5,118 nucleotides of DNA, from the IMG/VR virus record IMGVR_UViG_3300029517_000155, positions 1-5,118 of that record; one strand, given 5' to 3'. The notes beneath the pieces are model-generated. The model was not told the DNA's origin. It was given only the letters and a program-made list of their open reading frames with translations, and did not search any database. Within the stretch, counting starts at the first letter, position 1. Every line of letters starts with the position of its first letter. Positions 1 through 5,118 of the stretch are shown here, piece by piece. Both the position numbers and the translations under genes were made by a program. Source of the stretch: a virus. Its lineage: Duplodnaviria > Heunggongvirae > Uroviricota > Caudoviricetes.

Positions 1-55
1 ACTTAAAGGTATTAAAAACAACTTTTTGTCTTTTTACCTTCCCGTTTCGCTCAAG
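1..55. other. host chromosomal flank, B' arm of an attB(lambda)-type site
   Basis: Reverse complement reads CTTGAGCGAAACGGGAAGG directly 3' of the lambda core, matching the B' arm of E. coli attB as I recall it (..CTGCTTTTTTATACTAACTTGAGCGAAACG..). Recalled, not searched. Confidence 0.6.
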
Positions 56-70
56 TTAGTATAAAAAAGC
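56..70 (-). other. lambda-type attachment site core (O) at an attR (P-O-B') junction
   Basis: Exact 15-mer TTAGTATAAAAAAGC on the + strand, the reverse complement of the lambda common core GCTTTTTTATACTAA. It has lambda P-arm-like sequence on one side and attB B'-like sequence on the other. Confidence 0.85.
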
Positions 71-212
71 TGAACGCGAAACATTAAAAACCATTAATAT
101 CAATGTGTTACAATATCTTTAGTCTAAAAAATAGACTACATAATGCTACAAAACACAACATATCCAGTCACTATGAATCAACTACTTAGATAGTATTAGT
201 GACCTGAGACAG
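71..212 (-). other. lambda attP P-arm-like region with Int arm-type binding sites
   Basis: Reverse complement closely resembles the lambda P arm (..caggtcactaatac.atctaagtagttgattcatagtgactggatatgttgtgtttt..cgtttc.cgttca-core). CAGTCACTAT at 165-174 is a perfect match to the arm-type consensus (P2-like), and the reverse complement of 195-206 is a P1-like site (caggtcactaat). Confidence 0.8.
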
Positions 213-257
213 AGCATTAGCGCAAGGTGATTTTTGTCTTCTTGCGCTACTTTTTTG
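213..257 (+). terminator. tI / sib-like intrinsic terminator hairpin downstream of att
   Basis: GCGCAAG (220-226) pairs with CTTGCGC (241-247) and the stem extends to about 10 bp via flanking TTA/TA(A/C); it is followed by TTTTTT (251-256). It lies about 160-190 bp from the att core on the P-arm side, where lambda tI/sib sits, and resembles the lambda tI sequence as I recall it. Confidence 0.6.
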
Positions 258-419
258 TTATCAAACATGTCGCACTCCAGAGAAGCACAAAGCCTTGCAA
301 TCCAGTGCAAAGATTTGTGTGCCTCAGTTTTGTCTAAGTGTTCTACTGAAAACATAGTAAAATCGGCAACAGCTGGAAATCATTCAATACTCGCACTATC
401 GAAAGTTCACCAGCCAACC

Positions 420-460
420 GCAGCACGTTCTTGCATACGACGTGCTGCGGTTTTCTTTAT
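420..460 (+). terminator. candidate rho-independent terminator
   Basis: Perfect 9-bp stem GCAGCACGT (420-428) / ACGTGCTGC (440-448) with an 11-nt loop, followed by GGTTTTCTTTAT. The T-tract is on the + strand only. Confidence 0.35.
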
Positions 461-609
461 GATTTATGCACAATGGACAATTTGAAATTATTGATGATTG
501 TATGGTGCATCGTTTTCTGAACCTACACTGATTTTTTGGTATAGCCTTGCCTAGCCAGTCTTACCGGATCAAACTCTTCGCTATTGCAATACTAACCAAA
601 ATCATCAAT

Positions 610-638
610 TTGACAGCGATTAACCAGAATAATAGTAT
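610..638 (+). promoter_or_regulatory. candidate sigma70 promoter for the diguanylate cyclase gene
   Basis: TTGACA (610-615), a 17-bp spacer, then TAGTAT (633-638). A (TA)n tract at 683-694 lies in the predicted leader, and the AGGTG Shine-Dalgarno at 701-705 is 5 nt before the ATG at 711. By eye only. Confidence 0.25.
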
Positions 639-710
639 ACTATCACCAGTAAGAAATTATCGTTATTTGTAGCGATACATATTATATATATATCATTCTC
701 AGGTGCGTAC

Positions 711-2042
711 ATGATTATCAACCAGGTACCTATAAAAATAAAAATCTTCATCTTTTTATTTTCATGCATCTCTATTATATTTTTGTTACTGCATGCAAAT
801 AATGGAATATACATAACACAAACAACACAAATAAGTTATAGTGTTTTCATTATTGGGCTTTTTTTCATAAACCTGATGATTTTTATTTTTCTATTGCTTT
901 ACTATGTTTCTAATCAGAGACAAAGTTATCTCTTAATTCTTTCATTCGCGTTTTTGAGCAACACGTATTATTTATTAGAAGTGGCTATTATTTCTTTATC
1001 TCCGTTAGGTAACGATTTATCTACAATCTATCAGAAATCAAATGATATCGCAATATATTATCTATTCCGTCAGTTCAGCTTTATATCTATAATCTTTCTG
1101 GCTGTTTATTCCACCAATGTTAAAAACAAAAGTGTTTTAGAAGATAAAAGAAACATAATAATTGTTGTTTTGTCAATATTAATTCTTTTTATTACTCCGT
1201 TTGTAGCAAAAAATCTAAGCAGTGACAATATAAAATATAGTCTTAATATTATACAATACTCGCTGAATCGTCATTTGCCGACGTGGAATATCGTGTACAC
1301 CAAAATAATATCAGTATTTTGGCTTGTATTACTTATCAGCTCATGCATCAGCATACGTAATTACTCAAAAATATGGTTGTGTATAATACTTATTAGTATA
1401 GTGTCAGTATGCAATAATCTAATTTTATTGTATTTTATTGATAAATCCCATCCTGCATGGTACATGACAAAATTTCTTGAATTGATATCAATGATTTATA
1501 TCATTTCAACACTCATGTATTATGTTTTCAGGAAATTAAATCATGCTAATCATATGGCAATTCATGATCCACTAACGAATACATACAATAGAAGATACTT
1601 TATTGACTCATTGAAGAATATATCAAAACACCATGATTTCTCAGTAATAATGTTAGATATTGACAATTTCAAAAGCATCAATGACAAATGGGGGCATCAT
1701 ATGGGTGATCAAGTCATAGTAATGGTTACCAGAATAATAAAAAAATCCATCAGGAAAGAGGATATATTAGGGCGCTTAGGCGGTGAGGAGTTCGGTATTA
1801 TCATTAAAGGTAATACTCAAAAGCTCTTGCTATCAATTGCAGAGCGAATCAGAAAAAACATTGAAGAGCAATGCTCGGAAAAATTATTATCGCATGGACC
1901 TGAGAAAATAACTGTCAGTATTGGTTGCTTTACTTCAAAAGAGAATAATCTCAGTCCATCTGAAATGTTAGTCAATGCCGATAAAGCGTTATATCAAGCC
2001 AAAAGAACCGGAAAAAACAAGGTGATAACTCACTCAAAATAA
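711..2042 (+). CDS. membrane-anchored diguanylate cyclase: about 8 predicted TM helices (MASE-like integral-membrane N-terminal domain) plus a C-terminal GGDEF domain; possibly DgcX-like
   Basis: 443-aa ORF with a good RBS. The first ~270 aa form about 8 hydrophobic stretches. The GGDEF domain starts at DPLTNTYNRRYF and carries an intact active-site GGEEF (nt 1779-1793) and an RxxD I-site (RKED, nt 1752-1763) five residues upstream. GC content is roughly 25-30 percent against about 50 percent in the flanking phage genes. Confidence 0.93.
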   Translation: MIINQVPIKIKIFIFLFSCISIIFLLLHANNGIYITQTTQISYSVFIIGLFFINLMIFIFLLLYYVSNQRQSYLLILSFAFLSNTYYLLEVAIISLSPLGNDLSTIYQKSNDIAIYYLFRQFSFISIIFLAVYSTNVKNKSVLEDKRNIIIVVLSILILFITPFVAKNLSSDNIKYSLNIIQYSLNRHLPTWNIVYTKIISVFWLVLLISSCISIRNYSKIWLCIILISIVSVCNNLILLYFIDKSHPAWYMTKFLELISMIYIISTLMYYVFRKLNHANHMAIHDPLTNTYNRRYFIDSLKNISKHHDFSVIMLDIDNFKSINDKWGHHMGDQVIVMVTRIIKKSIRKEDILGRLGGEEFGIIIKGNTQKLLLSIAERIRKNIEEQCSEKLLSHGPEKITVSIGCFTSKENNLSPSEMLVNADKALYQAKRTGKNKVITHSK

Positions 2043-2071
2043 ACACCTTTTTAAAATACAGCCCCAATAAA

Positions 2072-2104
2072 CTGCAGAATATTATCCCATATAATATCCT
2101 GCAG
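2072..2104. terminator. hairpin between convergent genes, possible bidirectional terminator
   Basis: CTGCAGAATATTAT (2072-2085) pairs with ATAATATCCTGCAG (2091-2104) at 13 of 14 positions around a 5-nt loop. It sits between the cyclase stop (2040-2042) and the minus-strand tfa remnant stop (2116-2118). The U-tract is weak on both strands. Confidence 0.35.
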
Positions 2105-2115
2105 TTCGTAATGCA

Positions 2116-2208
2116 CTATTCGATAATGGGTCCTGTTGGCCATTCAATATCCGGTGCAGTTGTTGTATTAACACGGTTCAGCAACACCCGATACTTCTTC
2201 CAGGCTTC
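2116..2208 (-). pseudogene. tail fibre assembly protein (lambda Tfa-like) C-terminal remnant
   Basis: Minus-strand translation [30 protein letters not shown]-stop is nearly identical to the lambda Tfa C-terminus as I recall it (..[32 protein letters not shown]). No N-terminal part is present, and it is in frame with the upstream pin remnant. Confidence 0.6.
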
Positions 2209-2442
2209 CACCACCAGCACGACAAGATGCCGCATACAGTGACCCAGTCAGTCCAGTTTCCAGACAACCAGTGCGTCACCTTTTTGAAGGCGCTTTAAAG
2301 CACGTTTTAATCCAGGTCGGCCTGTCCTTATTCCGCTTAATTTATCTTCAAATATTTGTTCACATCCTGCACAAACAAGAGCGTTTCGTTGCAGGTCTGT
2401 ATTCTGGTCATTTGTTGATACCCTTACATAGCCAATCAGCAC
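2209..2442 (-). pseudogene. serine DNA invertase (Pin/Gin/Cin/Hin family), N-terminal fragment with an in-frame stop
   Basis: From the GTG at 2442-2440 (GGGAG Shine-Dalgarno 7 nt upstream) it encodes (M)LIGYVRVSTNDQNTDLQRNALVCAGCEQIFEDKLSG.R..RPGLKRALKRLQKGD.LVVWKLD, matching the Pin N-terminus including the catalytic-serine motif YVRVSTNDQ. A TGA at 2248-2250 sits where Pin has Arg (KLD-R-LGRSM). Weak similarity continues ([12 protein letters not shown] vs LGRSMKHLISLV) and then switches to Tfa-like sequence, so the resolvase C-terminus and HTH are missing. Confidence 0.85.
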
Positions 2443-2496
2443 GCTGAATCTCCCGTCCAAAAGCACAAATCATGCCATGCAGGCCAGAAACCGCCA

Positions 2497-2522
2497 TTAT
2501 CTAAAACCTCGGTTTACAGGAA
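2497..2522. other. gix/pix-type 26-bp crossover site for a Gin/Pin invertase
   Basis: TTATCTAAAACCTCGGTTTACAGGAA has a reverse complement (TTCCTGTAAACC GA GGTTTTAGATAA) one mismatch from the Mu gix site as I recall it (TTCCTGTAAACCGAGGTTTTGGATAA). It is about 55 bp upstream of the pin start and exactly at the start of the tail-fibre variable-domain reading frame. Confidence 0.8.
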
Positions 2523-2723
2523 ACGGTAAATCAGGCTTCTGGCGCATTACAGAAAAACCAGAACGGCGCAGATATTCCGGGAAAAGATACCTTCACCAAA
2601 AACATTGGTGCCTGCCGCGCATATAGCGCATGGCTGAATATTGGTGGCGATAGTCAGGTCTGGACAACTGCGCAATTTATTTCGTGGCTGGAGAGTCAGG
2701 GGGCATTTAACCATCCTTACTGG

Positions 2724-3467
2724 ATGTGCAAAGGCTCATGGGCTTATGCAAATAATAAGGTTATTACAGATACAGGTTGCGGAAATATTTGTCTTGCAGG
2801 TGCTGTGGTGGAAGTTATTGGCACTCGCGGCGCAATGACCATACGCGTTACTACGCCGAGCACGTCCAGCGGTGGCGGAATTACTAACGCTCAATTCACT
2901 TATATTAATCATGGTGATGCTTACGCTCCTGGCTGGCGACGAGACTACAACACGAAAAACCAGCAGCCTGCATTTGCTTTAGGGCAAACAGGACGCAGGG
3001 TCACAAATGATAAAGCTGTTGGCTGGAACTGGAATAGCGGTGTTTATGATGCAGATATCAGTGGTGCATCGACATTAATCCTCCACTTCAATATGAATGC
3101 GGGGAGTTGCCCTGCTGTACAGTTCCGCGTGAATTACAGGAACGGCGGTATTTTTTATCGTTCAGCGCGTGATGGTTATGGCTTTGAAGCTAACTGGTCA
3201 GAGTTTTACACCACAACACGCAAACCCTCTGCGGGGGATGTTGGTGCATATACGCAGGCAGAATGTAACTCAAGGTTTATTACAGGTATTCGCCTTGGCG
3301 GTCTGTCATCTGTTCAGACATGGAAAGGCCCCGGCTGGTCTGACAGGTCAGGTTATGTCGTTACGGGTTCAGTTAACGGAAACCGTGATGAATTAATTGA
3401 TACAACTCAGGCAAGGCCAATTCAGTATTGCATTAATGGGACGTGGTATAACGCGGGGAGTATTTAA
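2724..3467 (+). CDS. phage side tail fibre protein, C-terminal variable (receptor-binding) segment; orphaned partial gene
   Basis: The open frame begins straight after the stop at 2502-2504, inside the pix site, and reads ..NQASGALQKNQNGADIPGKDTFTKNIGACRAYSAWLNIGGDSQVWTTAQF.. before the first ATG at 2724. This is typical of the variable C-terminal cassette of e14/Mu/P1-type invertible tail-fibre genes. There is no constant N-terminal part and no convincing RBS at 2724; the stop is directly followed by tfa. Confidence 0.75.
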   Translation: MCKGSWAYANNKVITDTGCGNICLAGAVVEVIGTRGAMTIRVTTPSTSSGGGITNAQFTYINHGDAYAPGWRRDYNTKNQQPAFALGQTGRRVTNDKAVGWNWNSGVYDADISGASTLILHFNMNAGSCPAVQFRVNYRNGGIFYRSARDGYGFEANWSEFYTTTRKPSAGDVGAYTQAECNSRFITGIRLGGLSSVQTWKGPGWSDRSGYVVTGSVNGNRDELIDTTQARPIQYCINGTWYNAGSI

Positions 3468-3469
3468 CG

Positions 3470-5118
<1,649 letters not shown>

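Follow-up and report, generated by a model that had tools for sequence, protein, structure and literature searches.

The diguanylate cyclase gene dgcX lies inside a decayed lambdoid prophage at the lambda attachment site of Escherichia coli

Results

The open reading frame at positions 711-2042 (plus strand) of the window, meaning the whole stretch of 5,118 nucleotides that was analysed, is with high confidence dgcX, an accessory diguanylate cyclase gene carried as cargo by a lambdoid prophage that has decayed to a remnant at attB. Both dgcX and attR are intact although the prophage at attB has been reduced to this remnant. The gene was first described in the 2011 O104:H4 outbreak strain and in the enteroaggregative E. 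coli (EAEC) strain 55989 (PMC4287979).

Identification of dgcX

The open reading frame starts with ATG and encodes 443 amino acids without interruption. Its product is identical to WP_000586343.1 of EAEC 55989 at 439 of 443 positions (99.1%, full length and gapless), and the four substitutions relative to 55989 DgcX (A29E, P190S, I194T and K245Q) are all located in the MASE4 domain. At the DNA level, window 1-2213 exhibits 99.3% identity to the 55989 and E24377A loci, and the copies of E24377A and H10407 are 99.5% identical in nucleotides to the dgcX studied here. Richter et al. (2014, PMC4287979) named dgcX in the O104:H4 outbreak strain, 55989 and HUSEC041, and gave E24377A and H10407 as carriers at attB. 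In view of the 99.1% amino acid identity to 55989 DgcX and the 99.5% nucleotide identity to these listed carriers, the gene is dgcX, already described and partly characterised experimentally, and not a new one. The earlier note, which had pointed to a cyclase of this name and suspected that the gene might be described rather than novel, was right on both counts.

DgcX of 55989 and O104:H4 and the protein encoded here have the same length, the same MASE4-GGDEF layout and the same RKED and GGEEF motifs. The locus, between ybhB and a lambdoid prophage at attB, is also the same, as are the upstream region and the downstream tfa junction (99.3% over window 1-2213). The difference lies in the prophage, which is near-complete in 55989 (45 kb) and a heavily deleted remnant here. 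Comparison with K-12 DgcT (YcdT), which the earlier note had proposed, identified a paralogue with 37% identity over 408 aa (E 4e-83). DgcT exhibits the same MASE4-GGDEF layout, with an RxxD I-site (RPDD) and GGEEF in equal register, but it is encoded at a core-genome chromosomal site beside pgaABCD and not in a prophage.

Position of dgcX relative to the attachment site

The cyclase gene had been placed by the earlier note between tail-fibre genes and att, as cargo in the position of the b region of a lambda-like prophage, and the window bears this out on both sides of the gene. The 15-bp lambda att core GCTTTTTTATACTAA is matched exactly at window 56-70 (minus strand; 0.03 matches expected by chance) and forms the crossover region of attR, while a remnant of tfa, the tail-fibre assembly gene, is present at 2116-2214. 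Positions 1-55 represent the B' arm of attR: they are chromosomal DNA of the bacterium beyond ybhB and exhibit full identity to the ybhB-ybhC intergenic region of K-12. Base 1 is located 36 bp past the ybhB stop codon in SL124, E24377A, 55989 and Tig228. The empty attB of K-12, in this same intergenic region, agrees with the window at every position up to base 70 and is unrelated from base 71. Genomes in which attB is empty exhibit 100% identity over window 1-70, and the match ends there.

From base 71 to base 460, the window comprises the P arm of the phage attP, the sib/tI region and adjoining phage DNA. Phages HK106 and HK97 match window 52-460 with 93-97% identity at their annotated attP/sib regions, and lambda 27471-27742 matches window 52-323 with 89% identity. 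The genes bioA-ybhB precede dgcX in SL124, E24377A, 55989 and Tig228. A second copy of the core lies between ybhC and int in 55989 and likewise adjoins int/ybhC in SL124; in 55989, the two cores bracket int and xis through to J, lom, stf and tfa, followed by dgcX. Because the core lies between ybhB and dgcX, the divergence from K-12 begins at base 71 and the P arm and sib come next, the att sites enclose dgcX within the prophage, at a position that corresponds to the b region of lambda.

This position bears on the published account of the gene. The literature treats dgcX either as a hitchhiker acquired by specialised transduction, which was the proposal of Richter et al. (2014, PMC4287979), or as a gene that does not belong to a mobile element. 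According to the former proposal, dgcX would be chromosomal DNA beside the prophage and not phage DNA, which would agree with its absence from all sequenced phages among 50,697 records and with the chromosomal position, between ybcH and folD, of a paralogue of 67% identity. The att geometry, however, disfavours such an origin. Between the bacterial DNA and dgcX lie the att core and a P arm and sib of the lambda/HK97 type (390 bp), aberrant excision at this att would take DNA from the ybhB side and not the DNA from the P arm to tfa, and the cores of 55989 enclose everything from int through tfa and dgcX. At other loci, phage DNA is found on both sides of the gene (window 349-460 and the tfa 3' end), and the junction with tfa is as frequent as the full gene (767 genomes in each case). 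We therefore regard the hitchhiker origin as very unlikely and treat dgcX as prophage cargo.

Distribution and linkage to tfa

Among 5,426 complete E. coli genomes, dgcX was detected in 775 (14%), at a coverage of at least 80% in 767. Identity to the gene studied here reaches 99% or more in 674 genomes and lies between 90% and 95% in 86, and the exact dgcX sequence is present on at least 1000 contigs. A 284-bp junction comprising the dgcX 3' end, the spacer and the tfa 3' end was found at a coverage of at least 80% in the same number of genomes as the full gene, so that the linkage to tfa appears invariant. Linkage between the P arm and the dgcX 5' end was found in 593 genomes.

The arrangement of dgcX and tfa occurs at no fewer than four integration sites, with alleles down to about 81% identity. 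In addition to lambda attB, it is found at a torT-side locus (L015), which we take to be the HK022 attachment region, with 90% DNA identity over window 125-2213 and with tfa, a tail fibre gene, lom and J as neighbours. In the ycg region (L014), the homology covers window 349-2216 at 82% DNA identity, the encoded protein (P0007) exhibits 81% identity, and the neighbours are tfa, stf, lom and J. A remnant between argW and dsdC (L006, the Fec101-type locus) matches window 349-2210 at 90% DNA identity and is adjoined by a 96-bp tfa remnant. An attB-linked allele in Tig228 (L007, 6112-7461) encodes 449 aa with 98.1% identity; it comprises 1350 nt, compared with 1332 nt here, which implies an in-frame insertion of about 18 bp.

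Phages HK97 and HK106 share window 52-460 and then reach tfa without dgcX, HK106 having 124 unrelated bp before tfa in its place. The DNA specific to dgcX relative to these two phages thus extends from window 461 to about 2115. In the collection of 50,697 phage records, DNA matches end at window 460 and none of the records carries dgcX; window 461-710 has no homology to any sequenced phage in this collection, and the best protein matches are unrelated GGDEF domains of less than 40% identity. A search of the PLSDB plasmids with window 600-2100 gave no match. In IMG/VR, 15 loci exhibit 99-100% identity, but as these are mostly short prophage fragments from isolate genomes, they say little about carriage in virions. 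The most complete carrier prophage examined is that of 55989, in which terminase and rusA are both frameshifted.

Paralogues of dgcX

The paralogue of 67% identity (P0010) is located between nfrB-nfrA-ybcH and folD without phage flanks, and its homology to the window is restricted to positions 699-2112. It is found at L009 8001-9335 (also in L008 and L010) and in CP057162.1 (3123418-3140752). As its context is not a phage one, the dgcX family is not exclusively phage-borne. The objection that the gene might be a core chromosomal one outside any prophage nevertheless fails, since dgcX proper appears to be linked to tfa wherever it is whole and only this paralogue lies outside a prophage. The NfrB protein encoded beside the paralogue has an MshEN domain, a domain that binds c-di-GMP. 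The adjacency to nfr hints at either a dedicated local cyclase or an ancestral chromosomal home of the dgcX family.

A second paralogue, with 51% identity (P0013), is located between uspF and ynaM-ynaE-pinR-tfa-stf-lom-J, at the end of a Rac-type prophage. It is found at L011 8001-9341 (also in L012 and L013) and belongs to a cluster of 106 members, which includes E. marmotae and cryptic Escherichia clades. Richter et al. (PMC4287979) placed the dgcX copy of SE11 in this uspF/Rac-type prophage-end region. In the Rac-type locus, the GGDEF gene is flanked by copies of the hairpin at window 414-454 (compared over window 394-466), upstream at L011 7088-7160 (78%) and downstream at L011 9629-9670 (98%); these paired copies could mark a recombination or cassette boundary. 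A search of the E. coli literature for 'DgcY' found nothing relevant.

Signals flanking dgcX

Two hairpins precede the dgcX-specific DNA. The first, at 208-259 (plus strand), corresponds to the sib/tI retroregulation hairpin followed by a U-run; it is annotated as 'sib retroregulation site' in HK97 and exhibits a folding energy of -22.4 kcal/mol (z -4.75). The second, at 416-460 (plus strand), is a strong hairpin followed by UUUUCUUU, terminator-like and upstream of dgcX (-24 kcal/mol, z -5.25), and is common to HK97 and HK106. As both were missed by the promoter/terminator scan, they were folded directly instead. The two upstream hairpins would insulate dgcX from read-through from ybhB. Downstream, a hairpin at 2070-2106 lies between the convergent dgcX and tfa and is a possible bidirectional terminator (z -5.2 on the plus strand and -5.5 on the minus strand). 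The spacer between dgcX and tfa shares the conservation of the gene. This holds also for the 67% paralogue outside phage DNA, whose homology extends to window 2112.

The dgcX-specific upstream region (461-710, plus strand) was examined with a promoter scan. The earlier note had described promoter-like signals and a ribosome-binding site of the gene's own. The latter is present as AGGTG at 701-705, 5 nt before the ATG. For the former, TTGACA-17-TAGTAT at 610-638 is the best sigma-70-like match in window 1-2300, although the total number of promoter-like matches in 1-2300 is at chance level (12 compared with 12.7 in shuffles). The position of the dgcX promoter is a prediction from a consensus match. 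A -10-like TATA(C/A)T block and AGGTG are kept across diverged dgcX alleles and in the 67% paralogue.

Two overlapping small open reading frames, encoding 57 aa (minus strand) and 83 aa (plus strand), are present at 182-485 in the sib-proximal phage DNA. This stretch has no annotated gene in HK97 and HK106, and an O157:H7 record has a 'hypothetical protein' there; the two frames are probably not genes. In strain EC05 (NZ_CM169495.1, about 1393464-1396340), an IS1B splits the match to the dgcX locus near the upstream region or the 5' end, and this insertion might silence or re-drive dgcX.

Domain architecture and catalytic site of DgcX

The N-terminal part of the protein is a MASE4 domain (PF17158, residues 40-274; E 7e-36, 124.2 bits for a Pfam cut-off of 28.4). 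A Kyte-Doolittle scan of residues 1-274 identified nine hydrophobic stretches, several of which overlap, corresponding to about 6-7 separate segments. The C-terminal part is a GGDEF domain (PF00990, residues 283-437; E 1e-44, 152.7 bits for a cut-off of 23.8) that covers the full Pfam profile (1-161) and also matches the NCBIfam GGDEF model TIGR00254 (E 3e-48, 163.9 bits for a cut-off of 37.4). This agrees with published descriptions of DgcX, according to which the A-site and the I-site are both intact and the N-terminal domain, about 270 aa long, is common to YcdT and YeaI (PMC4287979); DgcX was later classed as a MASE4-GGDEF protein (Cimdins-Ahne et al. 2023, PMC10459773).

The catalytic motifs, which the earlier note had read as an intact GGEEF and RxxD, are confirmed by these domain matches and by alignment to PleD (1w25). 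The A-site GGEEF comprises residues 357-361 and aligns with PleD 368-372. The motif RKED at residues 348-351 is the sole RxxD of the protein, is separated from GGEEF by the five residues ILGRL, and aligns with R359-D362 of PleD. The metal, guanine and phosphate sites D316, N324, D333 and K431 correspond to D327, N335, D344 and K442 of PleD, and K435 replaces R446 of PleD, a conservative change.

The function of near-identical alleles has been studied experimentally. A dgcX::lacZ fusion exhibited the highest expression among E. coli DGC genes and required RpoD and RpoS; in contrast to this 'blockbuster' expression, that of DgcT is very weak (PMC4287979). Overexpression of DgcX induces cellulose at 37 °C and represses swimming, without raising CsgD, and the E359A/E360A (GGAAF) and E360A (GGEAF) mutants abolish the effect of overexpression (PMC10459773); the numbering of these mutants fits the open reading frame studied here. 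Deletion of dgcX slightly improves swimming, and the effect of the deletion on biofilm in Fec101 is minor (PMC10459773). Based on these phenotypes, which depend on the catalytic motif (PMC10459773), synthesis of c-di-GMP is the predicted activity of DgcX. The weak deletion phenotype in Fec101 and the replacement of PleD R446 by K435 could be taken to indicate that the GGDEF protein is degenerate and serves as a receptor or scaffold for c-di-GMP, like the paralogue CdgI/YeaI, and not as an active cyclase, but we reject this role as extremely improbable because GGEEF and the metal- and guanine-binding residues are intact and the published phenotypes require E360 and the E359/E360 pair (PMC10459773).

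The remainder of the prophage

The other genes of the window are truncated, clipped or fused, so that dgcX is its sole intact gene, as the earlier note had it. The tfa 3' remnant at 2116-2214 (minus strand) comprises 33 codons; it corresponds to a partial tfa in SL124 and to a full-length tfa in 55989 and E24377A, with homology to the latter two ending at window 2213. It is followed at 2248-2466 (minus strand) by a 72-aa N-terminal remnant of a Pin-type serine invertase (Pfam Resolvase, E 5e-18, profile 2-73 of 145), which is annotated as 'recombinase family protein' in SL124. The C-terminal, variable segment of a tail fibre is located at 2724-3467 (plus strand; Pfam gp37_C, E 9e-6), and a tail-fibre assembly gene at 3470-3988 (plus strand; Pfam Caudo_TAP, E 3e-33). 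The C-terminus of the latter is clipped at about 3985, where the homology to SL124 ends, leaving 172 aa compared with 177 aa in the intact SL124 protein.

A 212-bp internal fragment of the tail-tip gene J at 3981-4192 (minus strand) is 94% identical to the gpJ DNA of 55989 (L003 39043-39254) and matches Pfam Ig_J_second and NCBIfam lambda_TipJ. The 5' part of the gene for the terminase large subunit (gpA) at 4191-5118 (minus strand) is 98.7% identical to that of 55989 (L003 22361-23287) and matches Pfam GpA_ATPase and GpA_nuclease. Relative to 55989, about 15.7 kb of head and tail genes are missing, and this deletion fused the two. The resulting chimeric open reading frame (3954-5105, minus strand) encodes the terminase ATPase domain and the first part of the nuclease domain, joined to about 70 aa from the second Ig-like domain of J. 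The whole window was found in one place in none of the complete E. coli genomes, the best single-place coverage being 79%.

Window 2248-3988 is a remnant of a Pin/Gin-type invertible host-range segment of the tail fibre, and SL124 keeps a second tfa/fibre pair in the opposite orientation (L001 16032-16823). A search for inverted repeats in window 2100-5118 revealed no convincing crossover repeats for the invertase. The related prophages exhibit further cargo: in both 55989 (L003 16618-17700) and E24377A (L002 21560-22642), the prophage with dgcX has an OmpC-like porin gene between Q and the lysis genes, and a gene for an EmrE multidrug efflux protein follows ren in that of 55989 (L003 11069-11401).

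Discussion

With regard to other accessory genes of lambdoid phages, dgcX resembles the morons, the genes of the lambda b region and the lom-type genes in being non-essential, att-proximal cargo located after the tail-fibre genes. It shares with morons an atypical GC content, hairpins on either side and a direction of transcription that does not follow the late operon, and it has a predicted promoter-like element of its own. The GC content of dgcX is 29.8% (27% in the MASE4 part), compared with about 48% in the phage remnants to the right of the gene; this low value points to a foreign origin and was counted in support of it. The presence of the same flanks in HK97 and HK106, which are free of dgcX, marks the gene as a dispensable insert. 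In contrast to morons, dgcX is not found in sequenced phages (50,697 records), and its product is a second-messenger synthase and not a surface or exclusion protein.

DgcX is an inner-membrane protein in which the N-terminal MASE4 domain is coupled to a GGDEF domain with an intact active site. From its motifs and the mutant phenotypes, the GGDEF domain is predicted to join two GTP molecules into c-di-GMP. Binding of c-di-GMP at the RKED I-site would result in feedback inhibition by the product, and MASE4 may gate the cyclase activity in response to a membrane or host signal. The additional c-di-GMP would lead to more cellulose and less flagellar motility, as published for near-identical alleles.

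The gene occupies a slot between tfa and the attP P arm/sib region, convergent with the late operon and bracketed by hairpins. This slot, the convergent orientation and the hairpins suggest that transcription of dgcX in the lysogen probably starts at its own promoter and does not depend on phage development. Such a promoter would free dgcX expression from phage repression. The phage lineage could gain from the sessile phenotype of the lysogen, and dgcX would travel with phage particles.

It also seems reasonably probable that DgcX-type MASE4-GGDEF genes are long-standing residents of lambdoid phages, held in a single slot between tfa and the P arm/sib region, and not chromosomal hitchhikers. 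This reading is based on the presence of the arrangement at lambda attB, the torT-side locus, the ycg region and argW-dsdC, on alleles diverging to about 81% protein identity, and on the 51% paralogue at the ends of Rac-type prophages. If it is correct, it would mean that the phage has been under sustained selection to raise the c-di-GMP of its host, for example because a matrix shields the lysogen from superinfection or because persistence in the gut is improved, and it would correct the published view of DgcX as being outside mobile elements.

The strong biofilm formation and adherence of EAEC and of the O104:H4 outbreak strain are attributed in part to DgcX. As DgcX was already known, its recognition in a genome is a useful annotation and not a discovery. 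Three points are added here to the work of Richter et al. (2014) and Cimdins-Ahne et al. (2023). First, dgcX lies inside the att-bounded prophage and is phage cargo, not an adjacent hitchhiker. Second, it is apparently always joined to the tail-fibre assembly gene, across several integration sites. Third, it is fairly common, being present in about 14% of complete E. coli genomes and not in only a 'few strains'. These are modest corrections to the literature and do not define a new type of system. Nevertheless, the att geometry, the linkage to tfa and the prevalence of the gene bear on how the capacity for c-di-GMP synthesis spreads among E. coli lineages.
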